Positions 2,311 through 54,680 of a stretch of 64,000 bases of DNA are shown piece after piece. The stretch comes from a virus, in IMG/VR virus record IMGVR_UViG_3300046000_004279, positions 32,001-96,000 of that record. The stretch is one strand, 5' to 3'. A program made the position numbers and the translations under genes. Position 1 is the stretch's first letter. The number at the start of each line of letters is the position of its first letter. A model generated the notes under the pieces. The model ran no database searches. It saw only the letters and a list, made by a program, of their open reading frames with translations, and was not told the origin of the DNA.

Positions 2311-2541
2311 ATGCCGACTTACAATATGAGAAATTTAGAAACTGATGAAGTACAAGAGATGTTTATGTCTCTTAGCGAACGGGAAAGTTTGCTTGCAACA
2401 GGTAAATTTAAACAAGAATTGGCTACTCCAAATTTTGTATCGATCACAGGCGGAACTTTATCAAAAACCAGCGGCGATTGGAAAAATTTAATGACCAAGA
2501 TTAAAAAAGAAGCTGGTCGGTCCAATACAGTAAAAGATTGA
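2311..2541 (+). CDS. FmdB-like small protein (Cys-less)
   Basis: MPTYNMRN..T.E..E start; usual position upstream of phoH. Confidence 0.6.
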   Translation: MPTYNMRNLETDEVQEMFMSLSERESLLATGKFKQELATPNFVSITGGTLSKTSGDWKNLMTKIKKEAGRSNTVKD

Positions 2542-2543
2542 TT

Positions 2544-3239: not shown

Positions 3240-3487
3240 TGGTTATCATCTATGGTACGGAATGGTGCAGTTATTGCATCAGAGCAAAGAAGTTAGTTGA
3301 ACAATATCAGCTTGATTTTGAGTTCAAAGATGTGGATAATACTAATGTTGCACAACAATTGAAAGCACTGCTGCCCGATTACAAAACCATTCCTCAAATA
3401 TGGTGGCACGGGATCCATATCGGCGGATACGATAACTTTGTCCGTGAAGTTGAAAACACACGCAACTTTGCGCAAGATGGTTTCTGA
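3239..3487 (+). CDS. Glutaredoxin
   Basis: CSYC active site, TIPQI, IGGY. Confidence 0.9.
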   Translation: MVIIYGTEWCSYCIRAKKLVEQYQLDFEFKDVDNTNVAQQLKALLPDYKTIPQIWWHGIHIGGYDNFVREVENTRNFAQDGF

Positions 3488-3506
3488 AAGGTGAGATAAC
3501 TCTACT

Positions 3507-3689
3507 ATGGCTAAATTTGGTCGATTTGATCCCCACAATAAAAAACGGGATCAAGACAAGCAAAAGTCTTTACACAAAGACATCCGTATACACGAGAACG
3601 ATAAAGATCGAAGATTAAAGGGGTTTACTTACACCCCCGATGCTTACCTTGAACCAGTTGAAGAGGATTATTATGATTTTGAAGAATGA
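3507..3689 (+). CDS. Hypothetical protein
   Basis: 60-aa ORF, basic N-terminus and acidic C-terminus. Confidence 0.6.
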   Translation: MAKFGRFDPHNKKRDQDKQKSLHKDIRIHENDKDRRLKGFTYTPDAYLEPVEEDYYDFEE

Positions 3690-3903
3690 TATGTTTGAAC
3701 TGCTACAACTTCGCTTTGAATGGGAAGAAATTGCCCGTACTTTCAAATTAAGTGATAGATCTGGGCACCTAGATAATCTGAAGAGATTTGTACATGTGGG
3801 GCATAAAGCCAATCGCTTTCGTGATGGATATGACCGCGCTGTGGAGATTGCTAACTTGATTATTGCGAGGTGTCCAAATGAACGCGAAGAGATTACAACC
3901 TGA
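3673..3903 (+). CDS. Hypothetical protein
   Basis: GAGGA RBS, ATG 3673 in track ORF. Confidence 0.6.
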   Translation: MILKNDMFELLQLRFEWEEIARTFKLSDRSGHLDNLKRFVHVGHKANRFRDGYDRAVEIANLIIARCPNEREEITT

Positions 3904-4174
3904 TCTAAATTCAGATGGGTTACTAACAGACTCAGAGCTCAGTCGATCAGAACGGTTGACTGAGCTTGACATTAGAAACGAAAAAGCAGACGCACAGAAA
4001 CAAATGGCATGGGTAGCAATGTTCTCCATGATAGTGTTTACTGTTGTACTGTTTAGCCCTATGCTATCGGATAGTAGAGTGCAAGCTCTTGCCGATTTGT
4101 TAGGGCTTTTTTACATTGCACAGGCTGGTGTGGTCGGTGCTTACTTTGGAATGACTGCATGGATGAGTAAATGA
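3878..4174 (+). CDS. Two-TM membrane protein (holin-like candidate)
   Basis: GAGGT RBS; two hydrophobic segments. Confidence 0.55.
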   Translation: MNAKRLQPDLNSDGLLTDSELSRSERLTELDIRNEKADAQKQMAWVAMFSMIVFTVVLFSPMLSDSRVQALADLLGLFYIAQAGVVGAYFGMTAWMSK

Positions 4175-4947
4175 AAAGACTAATTTATCAAGTATATGTT
4201 GGCAAGAAATCAGCGTTGTATGATCACTGTACGACATCAGTAAAAGAATACTGCAAGCGTCACGGCATTGATTATGTTGTGCAGCGAACACCTATTCTGT
4301 TTATCAGACCAGATCCGTTTATGACAGGTCGTAGCAAAGAAGCTACTGATCGTCTTGGGTATCTGCCAATCTTTGAGAAAGAAAATGCATTCACATATCT
4401 TAAAAGTTATGACCAAGTTGCGATTATTGATAGTGATATTTTTATTCGCCCTGACGCTCCCAATATTTTTGATAGTATTGACCCATCAGCTGATTTCGCT
4501 GGTGTGGTAGAACGTGAGATGCCAATTACACCTCACTATGTCACTAAGATTGTAAACTATTCTCGTATGCAATACTCTTCTATTCGTAATGTTGATTGGA
4601 AGTGGAATGATCGTGGTGGTGAGTTTATCAACATGGGTGTGATGGTAATGAACAAGTCGATTTCAAAGTATCTCAACAACGAGACGCCTAAACAATTCTT
4701 AAATCGCCCAAGGTTCAAAGCGTTTGTTGATGGTCAAGGCCCATGGAAGTGGTCAACGGATCAAACCTTGCTAAACACTTGGATTAAAGAAGAGAAAATG
4801 AATGTTCATCATCTTGATTGGCGATTTAATGGGTTGTATACTGCAAACACTAACATCAAAGAATGCCATTTCGTCCACTTCTTCTTGAAGGACAAGCTGC
4901 CCAATCGTGGTGAGGATGTTGAACAATTGATGAAGGATATCCAATGA
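4171..4947 (+). CDS. GT-A fold glycosyltransferase (GT8/GT34-like)
   Basis: IIDSDIFI DxD motif, INMGVMV, DQTLLN, HFVHF. Confidence 0.8.
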   Translation: MKRLIYQVYVGKKSALYDHCTTSVKEYCKRHGIDYVVQRTPILFIRPDPFMTGRSKEATDRLGYLPIFEKENAFTYLKSYDQVAIIDSDIFIRPDAPNIFDSIDPSADFAGVVEREMPITPHYVTKIVNYSRMQYSSIRNVDWKWNDRGGEFINMGVMVMNKSISKYLNNETPKQFLNRPRFKAFVDGQGPWKWSTDQTLLNTWIKEEKMNVHHLDWRFNGLYTANTNIKECHFVHFFLKDKLPNRGEDVEQLMKDIQ

Positions 4948-5750
4948 AGCATATTGCATTAAGAGCTAAAAGTGTTCGCAATTCAAACAACGCGTTCACA
5001 GCAACTGGGCTTGGTGATAGGATCCACTCTGTTACTCTTGCTTGGTGTTATAGTAGAGCTCACAATACACCTGTGACAATTCACTTGACTAGAAGCAAAC
5101 AAATTGGTGGTCAGTTTGATAACAAGAAACAATCTTGGCAAGAGATATTAACACTATTTCCTGTTGGATCTGTGTCAATCGGATATCACGATTATGAACC
5201 AACCGATGAGTTTGATTGGATTCAATATCTTAAAAATCAAGGAATTGATGCAGAGATATTTTGGTATAAAGATCACCCAGGACCCCAAGAAACTCCTACG
5301 AAGTTGGACATCTCAGAATATCTAACTAAGGATATTCCGCTGTTGAAAGCAGATCCCGTCGACATGCAGCTGCCCGAACGGTTTGTTACGTGTCAGTGGG
5401 ACTCAAATGATCGATCTCGCACTTTAAAGCCTCATCTTCGTGGAATGGTGATGGACAACTACAGGCGTCAAGGCTACGAGGTTGTTACTGTGGGTGGTGA
5501 GTCATCGGACAAAGATCTTAATTGGTCTTTGAAACATATTGCATATGCTATGTCAAAAGCTGACATGCATGTGGGTGTTGATTCTGCATTTATGCACATG
5601 GCTTTTTTGTATAACCCATATAAAAAGATCAACCTATATAATGAGCCAAATGGGTTTTACTCACACCATGCGCGTAGAGCAATTGACAACGGTGTCAAGC
5701 TCAACCAATACTACACTCCAATTCGTTTACCAGATGGAACCATATTATGA
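4944..5750 (+). CDS. GT-B glycosyltransferase (GT9 heptosyltransferase-like)
   Basis: GLGDRI N-terminal motif and ADMHVGVDSAFMHMA. Confidence 0.7.
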   Translation: MKHIALRAKSVRNSNNAFTATGLGDRIHSVTLAWCYSRAHNTPVTIHLTRSKQIGGQFDNKKQSWQEILTLFPVGSVSIGYHDYEPTDEFDWIQYLKNQGIDAEIFWYKDHPGPQETPTKLDISEYLTKDIPLLKADPVDMQLPERFVTCQWDSNDRSRTLKPHLRGMVMDNYRRQGYEVVTVGGESSDKDLNWSLKHIAYAMSKADMHVGVDSAFMHMAFLYNPYKKINLYNEPNGFYSHHARRAIDNGVKLNQYYTPIRLPDGTIL

Positions 5751-6109
5751 CATTGACAGTATTGACAGTCCCTATTAGTGTAGGTGATTTTATTGATCGC
5801 CTAAGTATCTTAACAATTAAAAACAACAAAGATCTTCCTGTATCGGATGAACTTGAACAATATGAACAACAATTTGCAGAGTTGTCTGCGTATTCGCGAT
5901 TCCATTACCTTGAAATGTTTTTAGCTGTCAATGCTCAGTTATGGGGATTGGAAGACCGAAAGCGCAGCAAGTTGCTTGAGGTTGGTTCAGAAGAATATGT
6001 AGAAGTATCTGAATTAATCACACATCTAAACGATCTAAGGTTCCAAATTAAAAAGAGCGCTGACAAATACTTTGGAAGTGCCATCTCAGAAAAGAAATCC
6101 CATGAGTGA
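5747..6109 (+). CDS. Conserved hypothetical protein (DUF6165-like)
   Basis: PISVGDFIDRLSILTIK, VN.QLW.LED, ND.R..IK, EKKS. Confidence 0.6.
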   Translation: MTLTVLTVPISVGDFIDRLSILTIKNNKDLPVSDELEQYEQQFAELSAYSRFHYLEMFLAVNAQLWGLEDRKRSKLLEVGSEEYVEVSELITHLNDLRFQIKKSADKYFGSAISEKKSHE

Positions 6110-6731
6110 ACACCTAGCAGCACTATTCAACAAGTATGAATGCGACAAAGCGTCTAAGCACAAGTATCATACTGTATATGGTCCTGAGCTAGAACACTTA
6201 CGACTTTCAGCGTATCCAATCAACATTCTTGAGGTTGGTGTGTTCAAAGGTGCAAGCACTGCTGCATGGCTTGAATACTTTCCTCATGCCACAATCTATT
6301 GTCTTGATATCTTCACTCGCGTTGACCCAAAAGACATTCCAGTGTTGAATGATCCTCGTGTCAAGTGGTTGAAAGGTGACTCAACTAACCTTGATGTGAT
6401 CACAAGTATCAAAGAGGCTTGGCCACGTATTCGGTTTGATGTTATTATTGACGATGGTCTTCACACCCCTCGTGCAAATGCTAGTACACTAGGTAACTTG
6501 TTTGGTTTACTGAAGGTAAACGGTGTTTACTTTATTGAAGATGTTTGGGCTCTTGATCAAATGACTAACAAACAACTTTCACACTATTGGATTCAAAATC
6601 ACAGTAGTGACTTGAATCTGCTTGAGAACCAGCAGTTCTTAAATGTGTTGGCTGACAAAACGGTAACACGTTTTGATCTACGAGAAGAAACAAAACACGC
6701 TGACAGCTACATTATTAAAGTGACAAAATGA
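6102..6731 (+). CDS. Class I SAM-dependent methyltransferase (sugar O-MTase-like)
   Basis: DK...H.Y, ILEVGVFKGAS, FDVIIDDGLH, GVYFIEDV. Confidence 0.85.
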   Translation: MSEHLAALFNKYECDKASKHKYHTVYGPELEHLRLSAYPINILEVGVFKGASTAAWLEYFPHATIYCLDIFTRVDPKDIPVLNDPRVKWLKGDSTNLDVITSIKEAWPRIRFDVIIDDGLHTPRANASTLGNLFGLLKVNGVYFIEDVWALDQMTNKQLSHYWIQNHSSDLNLLENQQFLNVLADKTVTRFDLREETKHADSYIIKVTK

Positions 6732-7420
6732 AAGCAGTATCAATCGTTATCAAAGACAATGCAGTCTCCGAGTTTGGATATTCCAGACTCGTAGAATCTT
6801 CTCAATCTGTTGATAATTATTTTGATATTGTAAGGTATGATGCTATCACGCCCGACAAGGTCGATAACTTCATGGAGATCTCAGGTATCAAATGGAATTA
6901 TCCTTGGGAGGGTGAGGTGGTTGACTTTGCTACTGGGTTAAAGAAGTCTGCATATAAGACAGTGAATCCAAAGGCGAGAATGGCGTGCGCTTGCAGTCAC
7001 TACAGTTTGTGGCAGGAAAGTTCTACAACCAATACCACAATGTTAATCCTTGAGCATGATGCTTACTTTACCAACAAGATTGATTTTGATCCCAAAGATA
7101 TCAAGGCAGATATTCTTGGAATCAACAATCCTCTTGGTGCAACTCGTAAGTCGCAACTTTACTATGATATGATTATGGAGTCTGCCGCAAGTTATCAACT
7201 TGCCCCATGGATTGACAATGTGTATGTGCCTCAAGGGCTTGCTGGTAACTCTGCCTACATAATAAAACCTAGTGGTGCTAAGCACTTGATTGAAATAGTT
7301 AAACAATACGGTCTGTGGCCGAATGACGCTATCATGTGTCGCCAACTTGTTCCAAGACTAGGCGTCACTCGCAAGTTTTACACCAACATTCAAGGATTGA
7401 AGAGCACAACATCATTATGA
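6728..7420 (+). CDS. Glycosyltransferase family 25-like
   Basis: ACACSHYSLW, LILEHDA, AYIIKPSGA..L. Confidence 0.8.
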   Translation: MKAVSIVIKDNAVSEFGYSRLVESSQSVDNYFDIVRYDAITPDKVDNFMEISGIKWNYPWEGEVVDFATGLKKSAYKTVNPKARMACACSHYSLWQESSTTNTTMLILEHDAYFTNKIDFDPKDIKADILGINNPLGATRKSQLYYDMIMESAASYQLAPWIDNVYVPQGLAGNSAYIIKPSGAKHLIEIVKQYGLWPNDAIMCRQLVPRLGVTRKFYTNIQGLKSTTSL

Positions 7421-8061
7421 AAAATTATGTAATTACGATCATTGATAACAAGAAATCGATTGAGGCTGCAGATCGTTGCATTGACTCTGGCGTAAAGCAA
7501 GGAATGTTAATTCAAAACTTCCGAGCAATCACTCCTCGTGATCCTATACGAGACATCTTGAAAAAACAAGGCATCTCTGATCAAGGATTTAAAGAGAAAT
7601 TCTCACGACTTGATAATTGCATTTCAGCATTCTTGTCACACTATGCATTGTGGAATCAATGTGCATTGGGTAAAGAAGAGTTTCAGATTTTCGAGCATGA
7701 TGCTATAATTGTCAATCAAATTCCAGAATTTATTGACTACAAGTATTGCATCTCTCTTGGAAAACCATCGTATGGTAAGTATCAAACACCAAACAACATA
7801 GGTGTCAATACTTTAACGTCTAAGCGGTATTTCCCGGGGGCACACGCGTATAGACTTAAACCAGCTGGTGCTAGACTACTAATTGCTCAAGCAAAGGTTC
7901 TGGCGCGCCCTACGGACATTTTCTTGACCCTAGATACTTTCCCATGGCTAGAAGAATACTATCCTTGGCCAGTTGAAGCTCACGATACGTTCTCAACGAT
8001 TCAACGGGCAGAAGGTTGTCTAGCAAAACATAACTATAGCGATAAATATGAAATCATTTGA
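7417..8061 (+). CDS. Glycosyltransferase family 25-like
   Basis: AFLSHYALW, IFEHDA, GAHAYRLKPAGA..L. Confidence 0.8.
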   Translation: MKNYVITIIDNKKSIEAADRCIDSGVKQGMLIQNFRAITPRDPIRDILKKQGISDQGFKEKFSRLDNCISAFLSHYALWNQCALGKEEFQIFEHDAIIVNQIPEFIDYKYCISLGKPSYGKYQTPNNIGVNTLTSKRYFPGAHAYRLKPAGARLLIAQAKVLARPTDIFLTLDTFPWLEEYYPWPVEAHDTFSTIQRAEGCLAKHNYSDKYEII

Positions 8062-8698
8062 TAAAGTGTTCCTCACGGGATGTGACAGTAAAACTGAGTG
8101 GATGTTACCTTGGTTTTTGAAAAACTTCAATAAACATAACAAAACCCCAATAGTGTTTGCAGACTTCGGTGTAAGTGAACAGGGTCTTAACTACGCATCG
8201 TCTTGTGCTAGTGTTATTGATATGACGTCTACAGGTGGTCAAGGGTGGTTTAAAAAACCTCAATCTATGATTGAAGCTTCAAAACTTTCTCATAAAGTTT
8301 GTTGGATAGATACTGACTGTCATATACTTGCGGATCTAAAAGGTGTGTTTGACCTAATAGAACCAAACAAACTAGCAATGGTTGAAGACATTCCATGGTC
8401 AAAACGCAGACAAGAAGTGTGGCACAATACAGGTGTTGTAGCGTTTGAAGACCGCCCGTTGATCTTGGATGAGTGGTTTAAAGCTGTCAAATCCAATCCT
8501 GTTCAAGGTGACCAAGAAGTATTACATACGATCCTAAGAAAGGATCTTAAACGTCAAATAAACACAACATCATTACCACAAGAATACAACTGGCTTCGTT
8601 TGATGTTGCAAGATGGTGTTGATAGTAAAAAAAAGAAAGTGATGCATTGGACAGGTCCAAAAGGCAAAGAATATATCAAAGGTATTGTTAATGACTAG
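8048..8698 (+). CDS. GT-A fold glycosyltransferase
   Basis: WFKKP, WIDTDC DxD, NTGVV, GDQEVL, MHWTG. Confidence 0.75.
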   Translation: MKSFDKVFLTGCDSKTEWMLPWFLKNFNKHNKTPIVFADFGVSEQGLNYASSCASVIDMTSTGGQGWFKKPQSMIEASKLSHKVCWIDTDCHILADLKGVFDLIEPNKLAMVEDIPWSKRRQEVWHNTGVVAFEDRPLILDEWFKAVKSNPVQGDQEVLHTILRKDLKRQINTTSLPQEYNWLRLMLQDGVDSKKKKVMHWTGPKGKEYIKGIVND

Positions 8699-9284
8699 AA
8701 CTGCTCATGTGATTGGAAATGGTGATAGCGCTTCAAGGTATAATCCCGCTAAAGGGTTCAAGATTACTTGTAACCTTCCACCATTCGCTGTAGAGAATGT
8801 TTATGCTAGCTGCATAGTCGATTTCAAGATGATGAATGCAATCAAAGAAGGTAGCGTAATCGTCCCAGGAGAATGGGTACTTGGTGCAAGACCTAAGAAA
8901 TTTATGGAGTTAAATCCTCAGTTTAATTTGAAGTATGCCAATCAAGTAAAAGAATACTATGATGTACTACCAAAGTATGCTGGTAACTATACAAACTTCA
9001 ACTGTGGTCACATGGCTGTTCACTATTCGGCAAACAAACTGAAGTGTGATGAGATCCACATGTATGGGTTCGATTCGATCTTTGACTTCAATCTTCGTAG
9101 TTCTAGTGACCTATACCTTGTAAGCGATAGAGAAGCAAACAACAGTCTCAGACTTTCCAACAACTGGCGTCCTATCTGGCAAGATATGTTCAAAGAGTTT
9201 CCCAACACTAAGTTTGTCCTTCATCATAAACACAATCAAATCAAGTTTCCTGTTGGAAAAAATGTTGAGATCGTTACAAATTAG
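8691..9284 (+). CDS. Sialyltransferase/Maf-like glycosyltransferase
   Basis: AHVIGNGDS, NCGHMA, EIHMYGFD. Confidence 0.55.
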   Translation: MTRTAHVIGNGDSASRYNPAKGFKITCNLPPFAVENVYASCIVDFKMMNAIKEGSVIVPGEWVLGARPKKFMELNPQFNLKYANQVKEYYDVLPKYAGNYTNFNCGHMAVHYSANKLKCDEIHMYGFDSIFDFNLRSSSDLYLVSDREANNSLRLSNNWRPIWQDMFKEFPNTKFVLHHKHNQIKFPVGKNVEIVTN

Positions 9285-9287
9285 GGC

Positions 9288-9315
9288 TTGACTTTTCCGA
9301 CAAACACTGTATAAT
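9288..9315 (+). promoter_or_regulatory. Sigma70-type early promoter
   Basis: TTGACT-N16-TATAAT. Confidence 0.7.
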
Positions 9316-9346
9316 AAAGCTGTGATTGTTAACGAGGGTCAATAAC

Positions 9347-9736
9347 ATGATCTACACGGTTGAAGGCGGAACCAAAGCTCAGCGTAAGGTTGTCGATTCG
9401 GCAATGTCTTATGTAGTGCATATACTTAAAATCCCAAATAAAGTTCATGTTGAAATTGTTCTTGGAAAGTTTATCTCTCACGGGGTGCGAGAAGATAGCA
9501 AGAACAGCTTTGAAATTGAAATTTGCAAAGATGTGAATGATGCAGAGATCGCTTACACAGTATTCCACGAGATGAAGCATGTTGAACAACTAGCTAGTGG
9601 ACGATTGCGCCATCAGGGATTTATTACGTTTTGGGAAGGTAAAGACATGCCTCTTACTGAGTACCACCAGCGCCCTTGGGAAATTGAAGCATTTAAATTT
9701 GAGAAAAATGCCGATTCTATCTTGACATTTGTTTAG
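9347..9736 (+). CDS. Zincin-like metallopeptidase
   Basis: HEMKHVEQ (HExxH) and PWEIEA. Confidence 0.75.
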   Translation: MIYTVEGGTKAQRKVVDSAMSYVVHILKIPNKVHVEIVLGKFISHGVREDSKNSFEIEICKDVNDAEIAYTVFHEMKHVEQLASGRLRHQGFITFWEGKDMPLTEYHQRPWEIEAFKFEKNADSILTFV

Positions 9737-9750
9737 AGATGTACTATATT
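9722..9750 (+). promoter_or_regulatory. Sigma70-type early promoter
   Basis: TTGACA-N17-TATATT. Confidence 0.75.
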
Positions 9751-9777
9751 AATAGTATGAACAAAGGAGAGATCACA

Positions 9778-9960
9778 ATGAACGGCTTTGACTATCAATC
9801 TGCCACTGAAGTGGCGATTCGTCTTGCTGGTGTTGCTCGTCGTGCCATCCTGTTTGGTCAAAGTCGCGAACGGATCATTGAAGAGATCTTGTTCTTGTCA
9901 GAAGACTACGCTAAGGTCGCTGCACAAATTGAAGTTCACATGGAAAAGGAAGCTGCATAA
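9778..9960 (+). CDS. Hypothetical protein
   Basis: AAGGAGA RBS, ATG 9778. Confidence 0.65.
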   Translation: MNGFDYQSATEVAIRLAGVARRAILFGQSRERIIEEILFLSEDYAKVAAQIEVHMEKEAA

Positions 9961-10142
9961 TGGATAATGTAATGCGTGACGAAGTTGCTCGGTTGTATCC
10001 AGCAAATGTATCAAGTGACTTTGAGAACAATGTTCGCGGTGAGCTCATTGATTGGATTTTGCTTGCACCTACACCAATCAAGTTGACTGGTATGGACATG
10101 AAAGATGTAATTAAAATGTTTTGGAACGAAAGGCTAAACTGA
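9960..10142 (+). CDS. Hypothetical protein
   Basis: Coupled TAATG start. Confidence 0.6.
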   Translation: MDNVMRDEVARLYPANVSSDFENNVRGELIDWILLAPTPIKLTGMDMKDVIKMFWNERLN

Positions 10143-10336
10143 TGGCTGATAGAAATGTAAGTGTTCAAGTAGGTCCTAACTTCTTAGGTCTCTTGACTAT
10201 CGTGTTCATTACCCTTAAACTGACTGGATACATTGCATGGTCGTGGTGGTGGGTTCTTTCGCCGCTGTGGCTGGGTTTTGTTGTAGCCATTACCATATTC
10301 CTCATCATAGCAATTATTGCAGGATTGTTCAAATGA
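10142..10336 (+). CDS. Small membrane protein
   Basis: GLLTIVFITLKLTGYIAWSWWWVLSPLW, a common phage membrane motif. Confidence 0.75.
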   Translation: MADRNVSVQVGPNFLGLLTIVFITLKLTGYIAWSWWWVLSPLWLGFVVAITIFLIIAIIAGLFK

Positions 10337-10710
10337 AAACTCTCGTAGCTATCGCACTACTGTTTGCTACATCTGCTTCCGCAGATACTGTTCGTGCAAC
10401 TATCAAAGACCATTATGAATGGCAAGATGTTAACATACCAATTACGCAGACTTATTGTAAGCAGAAGTCTGGTGGTCAAGGTGCTCTCGAAGGTATGATC
10501 ATTGGTGGTCTACTTGGTAAAGGGATCACTGGTGATGACGAAGGTGCTATTGGTGGTGCAGTTATCGGTGGTATAATCGGTGCTGATAAAGCTGGTCGTA
10601 AGTGTTGGGACGAGACTACATATTACACTGAGACAACTCAAGTGTATGCGTATAGCACGATCACTTTCACTCAAGATGGTCAAACATACACCGTGGACTT
10701 TTATAAATAA
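10333..10710 (+). CDS. Exported glycine-zipper protein
   Basis: Signal peptide MKTLVAIALLFATSASA; GMIIGGLLG...GAVIGGIIG. Confidence 0.75.
   Translation: MKTLVAIALLFATSASADTVRATIKDHYEWQDVNIPITQTYCKQKSGGQGALEGMIIGGLLGKGITGDDEGAIGGAVIGGIIGADKAGRKCWDETTYYTETTQVYAYSTITFTQDGQTYTVDFYK
10702..10709 (+). promoter_or_regulatory. T4-type late promoter
   Basis: TATAAATA immediately before the first tRNA. Confidence 0.65.
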
Positions 10711-10716
10711 GACATT

Positions 10717-10793
10717 GCTTCCGTAGCACAACTGGATAGTGCAAGAGATTTCTACTCTCTAGGTTGTGGGTTCGAGTCCTACCGGAAGCACCA
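10717..10793 (+). tRNA. tRNA-Arg(TCT)
   Basis: Cloverleaf GCTTCCG/CGGAAGC, loop TT-TCT-AC, encoded CCA. Confidence 0.92.
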
Positions 10794-10798
10794 ACATT

Positions 10799-10874
10799 GC
10801 CCATGTAGGCCAAAGGTAGAGTCAGGAGACTTAAAATCTTCACAGTGTCGGTTCGAGTCCGACCATGGGCACCA
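10799..10874 (+). tRNA. tRNA-Leu(TAA), short variable loop
   Basis: GCCCATG/CATGGGC, CT-TAA-AA, CCA. Confidence 0.9.
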
Positions 10875-10892
10875 ATCTTCTAAGGGGTTTAA

Positions 10893-11048
10893 ATGAGTAG
10901 CACAGAGTACGCCGAACTTGCAGGATTGACTATCGCGTTGAGTCGTTTAAGTCTCACCGCTGAAATACATAGAGATAGAGAGTGGGCTTTTGTTACTACT
11001 TGGATGACAGAACGCATCAATAATTTAAACAACAAAAAGAGACCATAA
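10893..11048 (+). CDS. Hypothetical protein (51 aa)
   Basis: AAGGGG RBS; MSSTEYAELAGL... Confidence 0.5.
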   Translation: MSSTEYAELAGLTIALSRLSLTAEIHRDREWAFVTTWMTERINNLNNKKRP

Positions 11049-11221
11049 TGTTTTACGTAAAAGAACACGGATTCTACTATGAAAAAAAGCACGGACCATA
11101 CAGCACGTTGAAGGAAGCTATGGCTAACAAGCCGCCTGACAAGACATTTGGGCGCGAAGAAGCCTGTGTGGTATTTACGATTGAATCTACTGAAGGCACG
11201 GTTCAACTGCTAAACGAATAA
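11048..11221 (+). CDS. Hypothetical protein (57 aa)
   Basis: Coupled TAATG; MFYVKEHGFYYEKKHGPY... Confidence 0.5.
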   Translation: MFYVKEHGFYYEKKHGPYSTLKEAMANKPPDKTFGREEACVVFTIESTEGTVQLLNE

Positions 11222-11222
11222 T

Positions 11223-11313
11223 GGAAGTGGGCGTTAGACGCAAGAGGGACTTATAAACCCTTCAGCAGTAGATGACTGTTCTCGACTGGGAGCGTAACCC
11301 AGCACTTCTACCA
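11223..11313 (+). tRNA. Atypical tRNA with TAT (Ile) anticodon, long variable arm and non-canonical T loop
   Basis: GGAAGTG/CACTTCT-A-CCA, CT-TAT-AA loop, T arm CTGGG-AGCGTAA-CCCAG. Confidence 0.7.
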
Positions 11314-11314
11314 T

Positions 11315-11390
11315 GATCCTATAGCTCAGTGGTTAGAGCTGGGCGCTCATAACGCCTAGGTCCGAGGTTCGAATCCTCGTGGGATCACCA
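11315..11390 (+). tRNA. tRNA-Ile2(CAT), lysidine type; Met less likely
   Basis: GATCCTA/TGGGATC with C4-G69 and C5-G68; CT-CAT-AA; CCA. Confidence 0.8.
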
Positions 11391-11399
11391 TTAAAAATG

Positions 11400-11407
11400 T
11401 ATAAATA
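11400..11407 (+). promoter_or_regulatory. T4-type late promoter
   Basis: TATAAATA. Confidence 0.7.
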
Positions 11408-11427
11408 TATCAAAAATGAGATATCAA

Positions 11428-12483
11428 ATGTTACGTTTTAAAAAAGTCTTTATGGAAAGTGGTTTAAATTCAAAAGCGGGTAACCCTGAGAATTTTGATT
11501 TACACAGTAAAAAATACGACACTGAAGGTGATCGACATACTCAAAAGTATATTGCGCCTTACTTGCCTGGCAAAATTTCTCATGCGCAAGGCACACACAG
11601 AGTAAATGGGGATGTTTCTTCAGATATTCCAAAAGGTTCTAATGTAACAATTCATGGCCATTCAATTGTTAACAACAGGCATCATGTAACTATTTCTGCA
11701 GTTGGAAGTAATAAAAAAGTTACAGTAGCTACAAGCAAACTGAACAAACCCACAGGTTCTACTACCATTGAAAATGAAGGTCATAAGTATGAGAAGTCGA
11801 CATTTGATAGATTTAAAAGTCATGGATTAATTCCTGATGGATATAGTCCAGCTGGATCCACTGCTGGTACGGATGTTCCTATCATAAACAAAAGACAAAA
11901 AACTCACCACCAAGGTCGAATTGTTGCCGATGACAAAGCATTGTTATCAGGCGAAGTTAAAAAAGATACTACAGCAGCATTTGGACAGATAACTGTTAGA
12001 CATGATCCTCAAAAGGGCGGATGGCATATTCCCGATAATAACAGAGGAAAAAGACCCAGCTATGCATCCGAAGTTGAAAAAGCTGGTTTAATAGACCACT
12101 TAAACAAAACCGCCAGTGATCCTACTAAAACGACAAAAACTGCTTCTGGTCGAGTTAAAACTGAAAGAATTACACATCCAGATCTTAAACCCGCAGAATC
12201 ATATTTGACTGATCACCATGTTGACGTGTTACACGTGGGCGGCGGTCATGGTACGTATAGTGTCGGTGAGAAAGATGTTACTGACCACGGTCTACCTAGG
12301 CTATCTGGTAAAGGATTATGGACAATTCGTCAAAAACAAACAGGTGCGAATGCACATAATACTAGAACTATCATGTTCCAGCCACATGGCAAAGCTGGAC
12401 TAAATAATAGTCATATTAATCTTGATGATGATTCGCATATAGAATCTTTCAAGAAAACCTTGGGTCACTCTACTTCGTCATAA
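11428..12483 (+). CDS. Hypothetical late protein; possible capsid-targeted PD-(D/E)xK nuclease
   Basis: MLRFKKVFME start; GHKYEK...GTD...GEVK...FGQ. Confidence 0.55.
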   Translation: MLRFKKVFMESGLNSKAGNPENFDLHSKKYDTEGDRHTQKYIAPYLPGKISHAQGTHRVNGDVSSDIPKGSNVTIHGHSIVNNRHHVTISAVGSNKKVTVATSKLNKPTGSTTIENEGHKYEKSTFDRFKSHGLIPDGYSPAGSTAGTDVPIINKRQKTHHQGRIVADDKALLSGEVKKDTTAAFGQITVRHDPQKGGWHIPDNNRGKRPSYASEVEKAGLIDHLNKTASDPTKTTKTASGRVKTERITHPDLKPAESYLTDHHVDVLHVGGGHGTYSVGEKDVTDHGLPRLSGKGLWTIRQKQTGANAHNTRTIMFQPHGKAGLNNSHINLDDDSHIESFKKTLGHSTSS

Positions 12484-12610
12484 CAATCTATAAAACAGGA
12501 TATTCAAATGGAACCTTTAATAGAAAAGACTTAAGATTGTTCTTGCATCCGCATTTTCATTAAAAACTTCGTTGGATGTTAAAAAGTTTTCATGGAGCGT
12601 AAAAAAACGC

Positions 12611-12640
12611 TTGACTTACAATAACAAAGTACTATATAAT
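12611..12640 (+). promoter_or_regulatory. Sigma70-type promoter of the leader/tRNA operon
   Basis: A-tract, TTGACT-N18-TATAAT. Confidence 0.7.
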
Positions 12641-12670
12641 AGAAGTACGAACAAAGGAACTCTATTGCAA

Positions 12671-12757
12671 ATGACTTCGCTGCATAAACAAAATCAATCC
12701 TGGTTTATGACCCCGCTCTGCGGCGAGTATATTCGCATGTGTGGAGGCTCTATGTAA
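12671..12757 (+). CDS. Putative attenuator leader peptide MTSLHKQNQSWFMTPLCGEYIRMCGGSM
   Basis: AAAGGA RBS, 28 codons; the last codons overlap the antiterminator arm. Confidence 0.65.
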   Translation: MTSLHKQNQSWFMTPLCGEYIRMCGGSM

Positions 12758-12783
12758 CGTATATCAAAGATATACCTTATCAA

Positions 12784-12819
12784 AGAGCCCTCCCAGATGA
12801 AAATCTTGGAGGGTTTTTT
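12784..12819 (+). terminator. Intrinsic terminator (attenuator) just upstream of tRNA-Cys
   Basis: AGAGCCCTCC-C-AGA-TGAAAA-TCT-T-GGAGGG-TTTTTT. Confidence 0.8.
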
Positions 12820-12824
12820 AATAC

Positions 12825-12902
12825 GGTGTGGTGCTCGAGTGGCCCAAGGGAACGGATTGCAAATCCGTAAAGTCGTGAGTTCGAATCTCACCCACACCTC
12901 CA
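12825..12902 (+). tRNA. tRNA-Cys(GCA)
   Basis: GGTGTGG/CCACACC, TT-GCA-AA, U73, CCA. Confidence 0.92.
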
Positions 12903-12904
12903 AT

Positions 12905-12978
12905 GTTGGTGTAGCTCAATGGTAGAGCTGCGGTGGTCAGCACCGTGCGTGAGAGTTCGATTCTCTCCACCTTCGCCA
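12905..12978 (+). tRNA. tRNA-Trp duplicate with altered anticodon loop (GG-TCA-GC)
   Basis: Identical to 13057-13130 except position 26 and 5 loop bases. Confidence 0.6.
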
Positions 12979-12982
12979 ATTC

Positions 12983-13054
12983 GGTGTGGCAGCTTGGTGC
13001 TGACTTGGGTCTCATAAGCCCGAAGAGAAAGTTCGATTCTTTCCCACACCACCA
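12983..13054 (+). tRNA. tRNA-Met(CAT), atypical D arm
   Basis: GGTGTGG/CCACACC-A-CCA, CT-CAT-AA, GAAAG-TTCGATT-CTTTC. Confidence 0.75.
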
Positions 13055-13056
13055 AT

Positions 13057-13130
13057 GTTGGTGTAGCTCAATGGTAGAGCGGCGGTCTCCAAAACCGTGC
13101 GTGAGAGTTCGATTCTCTCCACCTTCGCCA
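13057..13130 (+). tRNA. tRNA-Trp(CCA)
   Basis: GCGGT-CT-CCA-AA-ACCGT, G73, CCA; two U.U pairs in the acceptor stem. Confidence 0.88.
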
Positions 13131-13139
13131 AAATAACTG

Positions 13140-13168
13140 TTGACATTTGTGTAGAAAAGGTCTATATT
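13140..13168 (+). promoter_or_regulatory. Sigma70-type promoter
   Basis: AAATAACTG-TTGACA-N17-TATATT. Confidence 0.8.
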
Positions 13169-13206
13169 AAGTTAACAGGGGGAAATTAATTCGAATCAAT
13201 CTCTCT

Positions 13207-13218
13207 TGCTCTTTCAAA
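13207..13218 (+). promoter_or_regulatory. boxA-like antitermination site
   Basis: TGCTCTTTCAAA ~40 nt after the promoter (rrn boxA is TGCTCTTTAACA). Confidence 0.6.
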
Positions 13219-13266
13219 CTAACTAGAAAATGTCCTAGCGTAAGCGATGATGGACTGGAAACAGAT

Positions 13267-13384
13267 AACTCTGTTTTCATTGGGGTGGTGCTTGGTGCTC
13301 GCTTAGTCTCTTGCAGGAGACGGTGGCTAGCTGCAACTAGTGAGCAAGGTTCGATTCCTTGGCCACCTCATTGAAAACAGAGTT
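13267..13384 (+). ncRNA. Unassigned tRNA-like RNA enclosed in a 13-bp stalk
   Basis: AACTCTGTTTTCA/TGAAAACAGAGTT enclosing TGGGGTGGT/GCCACCTCA and T arm CAAGG-TTCGATT-CCTTG. Confidence 0.65.
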
Positions 13385-13386
13385 TT

Positions 13387-13461
13387 TGGGGGATAGCATA
13401 GTGGTTTTGCAGCAGACTTTGAATCTGTTGATCGTAGGTTCGAATCCTACTCCCCCAACCA
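13387..13461 (+). tRNA. tRNA-Gln(TTG)
   Basis: TGGGGGA/TCCCCCA, CT-TTG-AA, CCA. Confidence 0.9.
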
Positions 13462-13465
13462 ATAT

Positions 13466-13540
13466 GTCTTGGTAGCTCATTGGTAGAGCGAAGGTCTGAA
13501 AAACCTTGCGTAGGGAGTTCGATTCTCCCCCTTGGCACCA
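13466..13540 (+). tRNA. tRNA-Phe(GAA)
   Basis: AAGGT-CT-GAA-AA-ACCTT, CCA; two U.U pairs in the acceptor stem. Confidence 0.88.
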
Positions 13541-13560
13541 TATAACATAAGGAATATACA

Positions 13561-13794
13561 ATGAAGATTGGTGATAAAGTTATCCATACTAAGCAATGGA
13601 ATCAATATAAGGGTTGGGTTGGGACTATTGTGTCGCTTAGTCCATTAATTGAAGGATTTGTTTTTGTTAAGTGGGATACACGTATTGATCCTGATGGTAA
13701 TGTCTTTAAAGATTCTTTAGAATCGGATGGTATGCTTCAACACGTTCTTGAGTTAACACTATACCAACCTGTGTCAGATCCAGCTGCACATTAA
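13561..13794 (+). CDS. Hypothetical protein (SH3/KOW-like)
   Basis: TAAGGA RBS; MKIGDKV...GTIV...VKWD. Confidence 0.65.
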   Translation: MKIGDKVIHTKQWNQYKGWVGTIVSLSPLIEGFVFVKWDTRIDPDGNVFKDSLESDGMLQHVLELTLYQPVSDPAAH

Positions 13795-13815
13795 AAGAAT
13801 TTCTGGCTGAATTTT

Positions 13816-13890
13816 GGTCCTATAGCTCAGTGGTAGAGCAAAGAGCTGATAACTCTTAGGTCAGGTGTTCAATTCACCTTAGGACTACCA
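13816..13890 (+). tRNA. tRNA-Ile(GAT)
   Basis: GGTCCTA/TAGGACT, CT-GAT-AA, CCA. Confidence 0.92.
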
Positions 13891-13927
13891 AAGTCAAACC
13901 TAGTTGATCTCGAAAGTCGCTAGGTCT

Positions 13928-13995
13928 GCTCCTACAAGTGGTTATGCGGTTGTTCGAGCAACTGCATGTGGGATCGTTCCCCACTAGGAGTAACA
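13928..13995 (+). ncRNA. D-armless tRNA-like RNA
   Basis: GCTCCTA/TAGGAGT acceptor, CAAGTGGTT linker, 10-bp stem, T arm GTGGG-ATCGTTC-CCCAC; ends in ACA. Confidence 0.55.
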
Positions 13996-14000
13996 AGTTT

Positions 14001-14085
14001 GGGAGTGACGCATCAAGGTGATGCAGCAGACTGTAAATCTGTGGCGGAAGCGCAACGTTGGGTTCGATTCCCTTCACTCCCACCA
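14001..14085 (+). tRNA. tRNA-Tyr(GTA)
   Basis: GGGAGTG/CACTCCC, CT-GTA-AA, long V arm, CCA. Confidence 0.9.
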
Positions 14086-14092
14086 ACACCAT

Positions 14093-14167
14093 GCAGCATT
14101 TGATTTCTGGTGAGATCGCTATCCTTTCAAGATAGAGAGACGGGATCGTAACCCGTATGCTGTACCA
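14093..14167 (+). tRNA. tRNA-Glu(TTC), ATCGTAA T loop
   Basis: GCAGCAT/ATGCTGT, CT-TTC-AA, CCA. Confidence 0.82.
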
Positions 14168-14170
14168 ATT

Positions 14171-14247
14171 GCCTCCATAGCTCAGCTGGATAGAGTACTG
14201 GTCTTCGAAACCATGGGTCGGGAGTTCGAATCTCTCTGGGGGCTCCA
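14171..14247 (+). tRNA. tRNA-Arg(TCG)
   Basis: GCCTCCA/TGGGGGC, CT-TCG-AA, A20, CCA. Confidence 0.9.
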
Positions 14248-14254
14248 TAACAAT

Positions 14255-14329
14255 GCTGGATAAGGTGTAACGGTTGCACTCCTGATTGTGAGTCAGGCAG
14301 ATGTGGTTCGACTCCACTATCCAGTACCA
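14255..14329 (+). tRNA. tRNA-His(GTG), 8/4 fold, no G-1, A73
   Basis: GCTGGATA/TATCCAGT 8-bp acceptor, GTGG/CCAC 4-bp T stem, TT-GTG-AG. Confidence 0.85.
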
Positions 14330-14334
14330 AGAAT

Positions 14335-14409
14335 GCGGGTGTAACTCAGGGGTAGAGTACTTCGTTGCCAACGAAGCTGTCGTGGGTTCAAATCCCACCA
14401 CCCGCTCCA
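14335..14409 (+). tRNA. tRNA-Gly(GCC)
   Basis: GCGGGTG/CACCCGC, TT-GCC-AA, U73, CCA. Confidence 0.92.
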
Positions 14410-14418
14410 ATATATTAT

Positions 14419-14451: not shown

Positions 14452-14889
14452 ATGAAGAAGTTGTTATTGGTAGCGTTACTGCTACTGCCATCCATTGCTT
14501 TCGCTGAGAAGAAACCAGAAGGCGTAGTACACGATCTAAAGATCATTCGCGTGATTGATGGTGACACTGTAGAGTTTGAAGCACCATTCCTTATTGATCC
14601 ATTGCCTAAGAAGCTATCAATTCGTGTATGGGGTGTTGACACTCCTGAAAAGTCTTTCCGCGCTAAGTGCGAGAAAGAAGCAGCAATGGGTGCAGAAGCT
14701 TCCAAGTTCACAAAGGATCTTCTTGCCAATGCCAAGACCACACAGATCTCAATCTACGAATGGGATAAGTATGGTGGAAGAGTTCTTGGAGATGTTATCA
14801 TTGACGGTAACAGCTTAACGAAGATGTTGCTAGACAAAGGTTATGCTCGTGAATACTATGGTGATGCAAAACAATCTTGGTGTGAGTGA
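14452..14889 (+). CDS. Thermonuclease (SNase family) with signal peptide
   Basis: RVIDGDT, IRVWGVDTPE, DKYGGRVLG; N-terminal signal peptide. Confidence 0.9.
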   Translation: MKKLLLVALLLLPSIAFAEKKPEGVVHDLKIIRVIDGDTVEFEAPFLIDPLPKKLSIRVWGVDTPEKSFRAKCEKEAAMGAEASKFTKDLLANAKTTQISIYEWDKYGGRVLGDVIIDGNSLTKMLLDKGYAREYYGDAKQSWCE

Positions 14890-14895
14890 AAACAG

Positions 14896-15204
14896 ATGCT
14901 TTTAGATATTACACCGAACGCCAAAGAATATCTCACTAAGATGACTGAAGATAACGGTAAGCGATATGTTTACCTTAATGTCAAGGGCGGTGGGTGCAGT
15001 GGGTTCAAATATGAATGGAACTTTACTGATGAAACCGACAAAGGTGCGTTGGTACAAGACATTCTTGTCTTGGATGCTATGGCTGAAATGTTTGTATTTG
15101 GTTGTACTGTGGATTACATTCGCGAGTTAGGCGGTAACTATCTCACAGTATTGAATCCTAACGCAAAAGCAAAATGTGGCTGCGGCGAAAGCTTTGGCAT
15201 ATGA
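14896..15204 (+). CDS. iscA: A-type Fe-S cluster carrier (IscA/HesB)
   Basis: GGGCSGFKY, NPNAKAKCGCGESF. Confidence 0.92.
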   Translation: MLLDITPNAKEYLTKMTEDNGKRYVYLNVKGGGCSGFKYEWNFTDETDKGALVQDILVLDAMAEMFVFGCTVDYIRELGGNYLTVLNPNAKAKCGCGESFGI

Positions 15205-16395: not shown

Positions 16396-17529
16396 ATGAA
16401 GTCCAATGTGATACAAGATGAAATCACTGCTGAAATCAGCAAGATTTTTGACTATAAGTTTGACGGGACAACTGAGTTTGTTCCACCGTCAATTGGAATG
16501 ATTGATAAAGAGACAACACTGAAAGACTTCAACATTGGCTTGATAGTCGGACCATCGGGATCTGGCAAGAGTACGATGTTAAAGGATTTCGGTGTTGAAG
16601 TCGATCCTCAATGGGATCCTGATCTCTGCGTTGCATCTCATTTTGAAAATGTGAAACAAGCACAAGAACGTTTAGGTGCAGTTGGGTTCAATAGTATTCC
16701 AAGTTGGCTTCGCCCTTATCATGTTTTGTCTAACGGTGAACAGTTTCGCGCTCGTTTGGCTCGTCAACTAGATAACAATGTAGTGGTGGATGAGTTCACT
16801 TCTGTCATTGATCGTGATGTTGCTAAGAGTTGTTCAAATGCAATTCATCGTTACATCCATGCAAATGGTTTGAAGAACATCGTCTTTTCATCCTGTCATT
16901 ATGACATTATTGAGTGGTTACGTCCAGATTGGGTATTTGATACTCAAACTGGTAAATTGACCACAAGGAGGTTTGAAAGGCCAGCCATCGTTTTGGAAAT
17001 CCTACCTTGTTCCACCAAAGCTTGGTCATTGTTCAGCGACCATCACTATCTTGACGGGGACATCAATAAAAGTTCACGATCTTGGATCGTCACGTGGAAC
17101 AACCGACCTGTCGGCTTTCTTTCAAGTTTAGCGATGCCTAGTGGTAGTCTTAAGAACGCTTGGAGAGGTCACAGAACTGTCGTTCTACCTGAGTTTCAAG
17201 GTTTGGGTATTGGTGCTAGAATGACCGAAGCTTTAGGTGAGATGCACATCAGAGAAGGCAAAAGGTTCTTCACAAAGACCGCACATCCGCGCTTAGGTGA
17301 GTATCGTAATGCGTCTGACCTTTGGAGATCGACAAGTAAAAACGGGATCTTGAGAAACGACTACAAACACATATCAACTGATGGTTTACCAAACCCTCGT
17401 GGCGCTGGTTACAGTCGTAAGTTTACAAAAGAATATCTGGCTAAACACGCTGACAGAGTGTGTTACAGTCACGAATACATAGGAAATACAACGGATCGTG
17501 GGCTGGATGGTAAAGCAGCAGTTTGCTAA
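16396..17529 (+). CDS. ABC-type ATPase fused to a GNAT acetyltransferase
   Basis: GPSGSGKST, LSNGEQFR, VVVDEF; HHYL and RTVVLPEFQGLGIG acetyl-CoA motif. Confidence 0.88.
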   Translation: MKSNVIQDEITAEISKIFDYKFDGTTEFVPPSIGMIDKETTLKDFNIGLIVGPSGSGKSTMLKDFGVEVDPQWDPDLCVASHFENVKQAQERLGAVGFNSIPSWLRPYHVLSNGEQFRARLARQLDNNVVVDEFTSVIDRDVAKSCSNAIHRYIHANGLKNIVFSSCHYDIIEWLRPDWVFDTQTGKLTTRRFERPAIVLEILPCSTKAWSLFSDHHYLDGDINKSSRSWIVTWNNRPVGFLSSLAMPSGSLKNAWRGHRTVVLPEFQGLGIGARMTEALGEMHIREGKRFFTKTAHPRLGEYRNASDLWRSTSKNGILRNDYKHISTDGLPNPRGAGYSRKFTKEYLAKHADRVCYSHEYIGNTTDRGLDGKAAVC

Positions 17530-19168: not shown

Positions 19169-20293
19169 ATGAATAAAATGATTTTGAATCCAAACGATGC
19201 TTTGTATGCATATGGTAAAATAAACGAAGCGTATGGTTCTATCAATCGTATTGACGATTATTTTAGAATGAAGAAACTTGAACGGATCAAACACCTTCCT
19301 ACGCCCTTGTTTGGGTTTTCGATGGAAGATGAGATGTTTCAATCATACGATATGTCTCCTGATGATATGAATTTCAAAGTTGTTCAACTGAAAAATCAAA
19401 CCTTCAATACTTTGTTGGAGATGACGGCTTCATTCACTTATGAAGACGCCCCTGGTAAAGAACTAAAGCTTGCAATTCAAGAAACCACAACTGGTAAGTA
19501 TGTTGGGTTTATCAAGTTAGGATCTCCTCTAATCAACTCCAAACCAAGAAACGATTACTTAGGTGATGTTCCTGAGTTCTCTCGTTTCAACAAACATGCA
19601 ATTATGGGGTTTATCATTGTTCCTGTTCAACCGTTTGGGTATAACTATCTCGGCGGTAAACTACTCAGCCTTATCTGTGCAAGTCACGAGATACGTGAGA
19701 TGATAAACAAAAAATACAATTGTAATATCTGTTTGTTTGAAACTACTTCACTGTATGGCAATATCAAAGGAACATCTCAGTATGATGGTCTCAAGCCCTA
19801 CTTGCGGTATCTTGGCGATACACAGTCTAAGTTTCTGTTAACTCTTCCTGATTCTATATACCATGATCTATACAAGTGGTTCAAAGATAAAAACAATGGT
19901 GAAGAACTGATTCACAAAGGTGCGTCTAGCAGAAAACTAAAAATTCAGACTAAGATGATTTCAATCATTAAACACTCTTTGAAAGAACATCATCCAGATA
20001 AGTATACAGAGTTTGTGGAGTTTATCAAAAATCGTGAAGAAGTCACAACTCAAAAAAGGTTCTACATGTCTGACTATGGGTTCTCAAACGTAAAAGATGT
20101 TTTGACTGGAAAGACTGATACATTGGTCCCGAATCCAGAGAACTATGACAAGTTCTATCTTGATAATCTTATAAAGTGGTGGAAGAACAAAGCTACAAAC
20201 AGATTTAACCGATTGAAAGAAACGGATTGTTTGCGTACCAATCTTGAGGTTTGGAACGAGGATACGATCAACACGATTGATATTATCAGATAA
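19169..20293 (+). CDS. DUF4338 (DruA-like) domain protein
   Basis: GFIKLGSP.IN.KPRN, IVPVQPFGYNYLGGKLL, ETTSLYG. Confidence 0.65.
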   Translation: MNKMILNPNDALYAYGKINEAYGSINRIDDYFRMKKLERIKHLPTPLFGFSMEDEMFQSYDMSPDDMNFKVVQLKNQTFNTLLEMTASFTYEDAPGKELKLAIQETTTGKYVGFIKLGSPLINSKPRNDYLGDVPEFSRFNKHAIMGFIIVPVQPFGYNYLGGKLLSLICASHEIREMINKKYNCNICLFETTSLYGNIKGTSQYDGLKPYLRYLGDTQSKFLLTLPDSIYHDLYKWFKDKNNGEELIHKGASSRKLKIQTKMISIIKHSLKEHHPDKYTEFVEFIKNREEVTTQKRFYMSDYGFSNVKDVLTGKTDTLVPNPENYDKFYLDNLIKWWKNKATNRFNRLKETDCLRTNLEVWNEDTINTIDIIR

Positions 20294-44250: not shown

Positions 44251-44283
44251 TTTGTGGATGCAACTGTATTTATTAGGCAAACA

Positions 44284-45944: not shown

Positions 45945-45945
45945 T

Positions 45946-48272: not shown

Positions 48273-48275
48273 TAA

Positions 48276-50300: not shown

Positions 50301-50322
50301 TTTTTTATAAGGGTAACGTATT

Positions 50323-52380: not shown

Positions 52381-52381
52381 G

Positions 52382-52389
52382 TATAAATA
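52382..52389 (+). promoter_or_regulatory. T4-type late promoter
   Basis: TATAAATA. Confidence 0.75.
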
Positions 52390-52410
52390 AAAGTAAACAA
52401 AAGGGTTGAT

Positions 52411-52851: not shown

Positions 52852-52852
52852 T

Positions 52853-54679: not shown

Positions 54680-54680
54680 T

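Follow-up and report, generated by a model that had tools for sequence, protein, structure and literature searches.

Mycoplasma capricolum reportedly carries tandem genes for tRNA-Trp(UCA) and tRNA-Trp(CCA). Phages that have recoded TGA to Trp possess UCA suppressors derived from tRNA-Trp, and a standard-code relative of recoded phages has acquired a TGA suppressor (Borges et al., bioRxiv 10.1101/2021.08.26.457843). Orphan suppressor tRNAs have been described in other standard-code phages as well: the Agrobacterium phage Atu_ph07 encodes a tRNA-UCA despite 267 UGA stops (PMC6102473), and the Xanthomonas phage XacN1 encodes two tRNA-CUA (PMC5852040). Phage tRNAs with altered anticodon loops that evade host anticodon nucleases have also been documented or proposed; these retain both U33 and the anticodon and are found repeatedly among related phages (PMC10264068; PMC11555353).

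Here we compare with these systems a gene bearing the stop anticodon UCA (hereafter the UCA gene) in the tRNA array of a virus. It is best described as a pseudo-tRNA or a paralogous gene of a phage tRNA array, a suppressor in name only, and on the sequence evidence we give about an even chance to its being a recent and redundant copy, now crippled, that arose through duplication followed by a templated patch. Like the UCA tRNAs of M. capricolum and the recoded phages, it appears to stem from a duplication of tRNA-Trp(CCA), adjoins that gene and belongs to the same transcription unit. In those cases, however, only C34 has changed to U, U33 and A37 are kept and TGA is a sense codon, whereas the UCA gene has five loop changes and TGA is a frequent stop in its genome.

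The window, by which we mean the whole stretch of 64,000 nucleotides that was analyzed, covers positions 32001 to 96000 of a 110,888-bp viral contig from IMG/VR (G000:C1) with an estimated completeness of 53%, and it encodes T4-type baseplate and tail proteins. The contig is an aquatic myovirus with the standard code, and no close relative of it was found among GenBank phages. ARAGORN places 25 tRNA genes, every one on the + strand, within a 10-kb array. An earlier note on this DNA had remarked that many genes end in TGA and had judged global opal recoding unlikely; the stop counts confirm the remark and allow us to reject recoding outright. Open reading frames of at least 100 amino acids (n = 113) end in TAA (58), TGA (41) or TAG (14), and those of at least 60 amino acids (n = 142) in TAA (74), TGA (51) or TAG (17). 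TGA, as the stop in 36% of genes, is not depleted, and the coding density under table 11, already 87 to 93%, barely rises if TGA or TAG is read as sense. Stop usage varies along the window: twelve genes in succession at 2311-8061 end in TGA, many through an ATGA start-stop overlap, and the structural module at 44254-64000 uses TAA almost entirely. A permuted (two-piece) tmRNA, called by ARAGORN about 27 kb upstream and outside the window (G000:C1:5245-5634), carries the tag ANDNFAPQAYALAA, a type that we take to be typical of Alphaproteobacteria and that hints at the host.

Table 1. Features of the four-tRNA block in the window, and gene order at the same locus in relatives
Feature	Position	Strand	Basis
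Terminator-like hairpin with T run, immediately 5' of the block of four tRNAs	12784..12819	+	Near-identical in L188 and L190
tRNA-Cys(GCA), first in the block	12825..12902	+	ARAGORN; Rfam 56 bits; 2 positions differ from L188
UCA gene: tRNA-Trp body, anticodon arm rewritten, in the ancestral Trp slot	12905..12978	+	68/74 identity to intact copy; L188 synteny
Position 26: T in the UCA gene, G in the CCA copy and relatives; U26-G44 possible	12929	+	Alignment
Rewritten anticodon loop GGTCAGC (G32 G33 U34 C35 A36 G37 C38)	12935..12941	+	
GTCAGCACC, inverted-repeat arm within the UCA gene (loop 33-38 and stem 39-41)	12936..12944	+	
Window allele of Met', a conserved, unusual tRNA-Met(CAU)-like gene	12983..13054	+	ARAGORN; Rfam 35.5 bits
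GGTGCTGAC in the D arm of the window Met', proposed template of the new loop	12996..13004	+	
Intact tRNA-Trp(CCA), lineage-specific second copy, 152 bp downstream of the UCA gene	13057..13130	+	ARAGORN, Rfam 58.9 bits
Locus order in L190: Cys-Met'-promoter			
Locus order in L188: Cys-Trp(CCA)-Met'-promoter			
Locus order in the window: Cys-UCA gene-Met'-Trp(CCA)-promoter			

The earlier note had presented the UCA gene and the intact tRNA-Trp(CCA) gene as copies that part company in the anticodon loop, and direct comparison of the two over their 74 nucleotides bears this out (Table 1). Five of the six differences lie in the loop (GGTCAGC against CTCCAAA), where only C35 and A36 are common to both copies, and the sixth is at tRNA position 26. 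The anticodon is UCA at positions 34 to 36 and U33 is lost; ARAGORN accordingly calls the gene tRNA(tca) and the intact copy tRNA-Trp(cca). The suggested G32-C38 closure is borne out by folding, in which the isolated arm pairs over 6 bp and leaves 5 nt in the loop (-9.3 kcal/mol; the Trp arm reaches -4.9). The concentration of changes on the anticodon arm is non-random, since at least five of six differences would fall in a 7-nt loop with P = 7.6e-6 and all six inside 13 nt with P = 2.6e-4.

Apart from the loop, the UCA gene has the makings of an ordinary tRNA. It scores 42.0 bits against the Rfam tRNA model RF00005 (gathering score 29), with Infernal leaving the loop as an unaligned insert, so that by its cloverleaf and by this threshold it is a canonical elongator tRNA; in place of U33 and an open 7-nt loop, it has G33 and G32-C38. 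Both Trp copies keep the encoded CCA and G73, and both have U-U at 2:71 and 3:70 in the acceptor stem. Pyrimidine-pyrimidine mismatches of this kind are kept in the Trp lineage of the phage group (window 13057-13130; L027 11827-11900; L107-L117), with U-U at 2:71 and U-U, C-C or C-U at 3:70 across at least 10 distinct sequences; position 3:70 varies on both sides and is never a pair, and more distant Trp tRNAs pair normally. We rejected a selenocysteine tRNA, as ARAGORN bases that label on the anticodon only, the body is that of a 74-nt type I tRNA-Trp, and RF01852 has no match at the gene.

With the Met'-type gene, conserved tRNAs and a conserved ABC-ATPase/GNAT gene of the array as baits, ~45 related tRNA arrays were fetched from IMG/VR. 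Decisive for the ancestral state of the locus is L188 (IMGVR_UViG_3300021962_000170), the relative closest by synteny, which is collinear with positions 4687 to 14412 of the window at 80 to 88% nucleotide identity; in the alignment the compared locus runs between the terminator-like hairpin and a promoter region, both of them conserved. Because L188 has Trp(CCA) between Cys and Met', the slot in which the UCA gene stands is the ancestral one for Trp, which makes the intact copy the lineage-specific duplicate. That second copy is missing at its place in both L188 and L190, where the promoter region directly follows Met'. The duplicated block takes in 14 nt upstream of tRNA-Trp (CCCACACCNCCAAT), and the 3' end of tRNA-Cys (CCCACACCTCCAAT) recurs with one change ahead of the second Trp copy. 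A simple tandem duplication of a 152-bp unit was rejected, as by itself it fails to give the observed order, a second Met' being missing. The UCA gene and the CCA copy have in common a window-specific body that differs from the Trp gene of L188 (T stem GAGAG/CTCTC, U43), so the two split, or were homogenized, after the divergence from L188. Since G26 and CUCCAAA are the state in relatives, the UCA gene is the derived copy.

The new loop stands alone among its relatives. Of 313 distinct tRNAs in the related arrays, 310 have U33; G33 and G32:C38 are each found in the UCA gene alone, and YUCCAAM is the loop of every one of the 17 distinct Trp tRNAs. The earlier note had proposed a search of relatives for the same loop, and that search came back empty at every scale. 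The ~45 related arrays hold no tRNA(UCA), the positional orthologue in L188 being CCA. Exact and degenerate pattern scans recovered the loop in a tRNA context from none of 2.9 million viral contigs in IMG/VR, 241 million JGI metagenome records or 185,579 species with one genome each. The pattern matches that did appear (15 viral, 4 metagenomic and 1 bacterial) were rejected as chance occurrences outside tRNAs, none being called a tRNA, and no second instance of the arrangement UCA gene-Met'-Trp came up in the collections searched, in which the nearest relatives of the window may have been missing.

Several other tRNA-like genes of unusual form were seen in the related arrays. In L118, the anticodon loop of a tRNA-like gene on the minus strand (3134-3208) is 8 nt long, AUUGAUAA, and ARAGORN gives it the four-base anticodon UGAU. 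On the reverse strand of L120 (Ga0209083_1000103, ~4940-5060), tRNA D and T arms with an ACCA end flank a truncated middle that replaces the anticodon arm, a sequence left uncalled by ARAGORN. In the window itself, a tRNA-like gene at 13282-13370 combines acceptor and T arms with a long extra arm, and its anticodon-type loop, UUGCAG, has 6 nt; ARAGORN gives it a 2-nt anticodon, it encodes no CCA, and blastn found no homologue of it in related loci. Within the array also lies a gene whose product joins an ABC-type ATPase to a GNAT acetyltransferase domain (16396-17529; phrog_11143), with relatives in 321 viral contig stretches and a conceivable role in tRNA modification. Upstream of the block, a 355-aa open reading frame at 11416-12483 is an insertion relative to L188. 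We checked it as a possible homing endonuclease, which could have been a source of local rearrangement, and it matched no Pfam or PHROG family; relatives at 44 to 76% identity occur in five viral contigs in other gene contexts, and it may be mobile.

The neighbor of the UCA gene, Met', deserves particular attention. The family is represented in 16 viral contigs, mostly directly after tRNA-Cys. Its members are 72 nt long, lack the 8-9 spacer and have a short D arm and a consensus A5-G68 mismatch, and ARAGORN misses the copy in L027. The window allele differs at about 15 nucleotides, mostly in compensatory fashion, and keeps its cloverleaf; it bears the acceptor stem of the neighboring tRNA-Cys on both strands as well as a Trp-like T loop.

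The sequence of the new loop can be read in this neighbor. The loop and 3' stem of the UCA gene, GUCAGCACC, are the exact reverse complement of a segment of the Met' D arm, GGUGCUGAC; bases 33 to 41, GTCAGCACC, are the exact reverse complement of GGTGCTGAC in the window Met', 55 nt downstream. A match of at least 9 nt to the window Met' that overlaps the loop would be made by 26 of the 16,384 possible loops in this context (0.16%; P ~0.0016), and the match is the longest loop-overlapping one, rank 1, among 572 ordered adjacent tRNA pairs of related arrays. The intact Trp gene already shares 8 nt, ACCGTGCG, with the D arm of the L188-type Met' when that arm is read as its reverse complement, and the UCA gene lengthens the inverted match to that D arm to 13/14 (extended to position 46). 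Measured against the present window Met', the inverted repeat goes from 5/9 in the ancestral loop region to 9/9 in the UCA gene. That the loop is the reverse complement of a neighboring D arm indicates a mutational rather than an adaptive origin.

Template-switch (quasi-palindrome) mutation perfects an imperfect inverted repeat by clustered, simultaneous changes that keep length. The UCA gene resembles the quasi-palindrome mutations of the Ripley type in its clustered, length-keeping changes and in having a nearby inverted donor that supplies new bases. It departs from them in that two of its six changes are untemplated: the donor accounts for positions 33, 34, 37 and 38 and fails to account for C32 to G and G26 to U, and the mechanism is read from one sequence. 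No exact fit was achieved with a stepwise template-switch model with microhomology on both sides.

From these data we infer the following order of events. The UCA gene would be the original tRNA-Trp of a block with the order Cys-Trp-Met'. A copy of the Trp gene may have been placed beyond Met' in this phage lineage, and with an intact CCA copy present the original Trp gene would have become redundant. The anticodon loop of the original would then have been overwritten, most likely in one step, by a template switch during replication or repair that copied the complementary strand of the adjacent Met' D-arm segment and thereby turned an imperfect inverted repeat (5/9) into a perfect 9-nt repeat. 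The two extra changes, at positions 32 and 26, would have lengthened the helix, each being able to add a base pair to it. With the loop read as a template-switch patch, the UCA is probably incidental: it complements the UGA within the neighbor's GC-UGA-C, and is probably no selected anticodon. The acceptor stem of the window Met' together with this loop shows, if the template-switch reading holds, short-patch exchange between adjacent tRNA genes.

The UCA gene is probably still transcribed and trimmed with its neighbors, because its body is identical to that of the working copy and it sits in one transcription unit with gaps of 2 to 4 nt on either side. It should decode poorly or not at all, and efficient decoding is unlikely, because U33 and with it the U-turn are lost, G32-C38 can close the loop to five bases, and A37 has become G. 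A37 stabilizes the A36-U pair on UNN codons. Substitutions of U33 reduce the activity of a tRNA without abolishing it. The U-turn is regarded as necessary for translocation (PMC4764823).

Five observations sit uneasily with a crippled duplicate. Selection for a longer hairpin could be behind the two untemplated changes, C32 to G and G26 to U, as each is in the anticodon arm and contributes a further pair. Outside the loop, the anchor with the present window Met' is just 3 nt (ACC), and the 5' side has no microhomology. The sole loop positions that were kept, C35 and A36, would also fit selection for a Trp-charged reader of UGA and UGG, as these are the anticodon bases that matter most for TrpRS and for the UGR box. 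Useless DNA is usually lost from phage genomes, yet the body of the UCA gene has not acquired any further mutation. Finally, tRNA(CUA) genes are present in relatives with the standard code, as set out below.

An alternative that we consider unlikely is a weak opal suppressor, or a tRNA-Trp that reads UGA and UGG, charged by TrpRS through G73, C35 and A36. G33 and the G32-C38 pair would attenuate such a tRNA, and with readthrough kept low the 36% of genes that end in TGA would be unharmed. The gene does have what recognition would call for: UCA at positions 34 to 36 in a working tRNA-Trp body that retains its encoded CCA, together with the three Trp identity elements. It also keeps a purine at position 37, and G37 after A36 is found in five tRNA-Phe genes of this phage group. 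Bacterial TrpRS tolerates C34U. Literature on this tolerance is cited by Borges et al. (bioRxiv 10.1101/2021.08.26.457843). In two relatives a tRNA(CUA) is flanked by Pro or Ser(GCU) on one side and by Gly(UCC) on the other: L027 at 12220-12294 (L112), with a CCCUAAA loop and thus C33, and L111 at 2647-2720, with a canonical CUCUAAA loop. These relatives use the standard code, so suppressor-type tRNAs are tolerated or used in the group. TAG is still a stop in 7 of 69 genes of the L027 contig (G001), and the counterpart place in the window is held by a DruA-domain gene at 19169-20293.

Against a suppressor stand the decoding context and the genome. U33 and A37, which known UCA suppressors from nature and the laboratory have, are both gone, and G33 and a Watson-Crick G32-C38 each occur once among the 313 related tRNAs. 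The orphan tRNA(UCA) of Atu_ph07, which we extracted, has another body, A73 and a canonical CUUCAAA loop, unlike the GGUCAGC of the UCA gene with its G33, G32-C38 and G37. The UCA gene is like the orphan suppressors of Atu_ph07 and XacN1 in being a stop anticodon in an array, in a genome where the same stop is common and no readthrough target is evident; it is unlike them in being a fresh copy of the neighboring tRNA-Trp that is not common to relatives, where the slot holds CCA. No gene that needs UGA readthrough was found in the genome, in which the median in-frame extension past TGA is 9 codons, and no phage gene has an in-frame target of the extended codon type GCUGACC. TGA is undepleted, whereas Borges et al. 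describe its depletion on the way to recoding, and the sequence of the loop is accounted for by the neighboring gene. The sole long in-frame TGA junction, 14889/14896, joins two unrelated genes: a staphylococcal-nuclease homologue ends in TGA, and a HesB/IscA-like gene begins in the same frame two codons on (the pair spanning 14452-15204). A readthrough fusion of the two (SNase, 14452-14889; HesB, 14896-15204) was rejected, as the nuclease bears a signal peptide and relatives have the two genes at separate places.

It is improbable, in our judgment, that the UCA gene makes a functional RNA that does not decode, whether as a decoy or resistant stand-in against a host nuclease that targets tRNA-Trp, or by pairing in cis with the D arm of the window Met' within the polycistronic precursor and so controlling maturation of one or both RNAs. 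All six changes are confined to the anticodon arm with the rest of the gene intact, and those at positions 26, 32 and 38 lengthen its helix. RNAfold pairs this arm with the Met' D-arm segment: the joined sequence of the UCA gene, ATTC and Met' forms a 10- to 14-bp helix of the intermolecular type at -56.9 kcal/mol, against -52.9 for separate folds (a gain of 4.0), and with the CCA copy in place of the UCA gene the gain is just 1.6 kcal/mol and two separate folds are kept. Such minimum-free-energy folds, however, leave out tRNA tertiary structure and cotranscriptional folding and are weak evidence. The tRNA-like gene with a 6-nt loop at 13282-13370 is an example of other genes with abnormal loops in the same array. 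The resemblance to the nuclease-evading phage tRNAs cited above lies in the concentration of differences in the anticodon loop; unlike them, the UCA gene has changed its wobble base (C34 to U) and U33 (to G), keeping only C35 and A36 of the anticodon, is a singleton, and has an unprotected standard copy beside it. A resistant stand-in would have to read UGG efficiently, whereas this gene lacks U33 and an ordinary CUCCAAA copy lies alongside; a decoy would be expected to retain the loop by which a nuclease recognizes its target, whereas five of seven loop bases are changed. Nor is the gene conserved in any relative examined. We regard with comparable doubt the idea that the gene is kept on purpose as a disabled decoder, either as an attenuated reader of UGA late in infection or as a cis antisense element that gates Met' maturation; to our knowledge, pairing between an anticodon arm and a D arm that gates maturation in a tRNA operon precursor is undescribed. 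The decoy, the nuclease-resistant mimic and the conditional UGA reader had all been put forward in the earlier note, and none gained support, given a loop that is unique in the collections, a normal CCA in the L188 slot and a match to the D arm of the neighbor. The same note had named a decaying duplicate unique to this genome as one outcome that would undo its proposal, and the sequence evidence leans that way.

Less probable still is an artefact of assembly, in which strain variants, or an inverted template that arose during amplification, were joined into a chimera. The source is a single metagenomic contig with an estimated completeness of 53%, it contains a near-identical repeat of 89 nt, its arrangement was seen nowhere else, and multiple-displacement amplification is known to yield chimeras with inverted templates, but the repeat is shorter than ordinary read lengths, the difference is a compact 6-nt patch that keeps length and structure with no junction, the flanks are collinear with L188, and the Met' cloverleaf is kept by compensatory changes as in a real gene.

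If the UCA gene is functional after all, it would be the first case known from nature of a tRNA that works with G33. If the reading of a crippled duplicate holds, the gene counsels caution wherever suppressor tRNAs of standard-code phages are counted as evidence of incipient recoding, since annotation software takes it for a suppressor (ARAGORN labels it tRNA-SeC), and the locus would be a snapshot of the evolution of phage tRNA arrays, in which a duplication was followed by a single templated rewrite from a neighboring gene.
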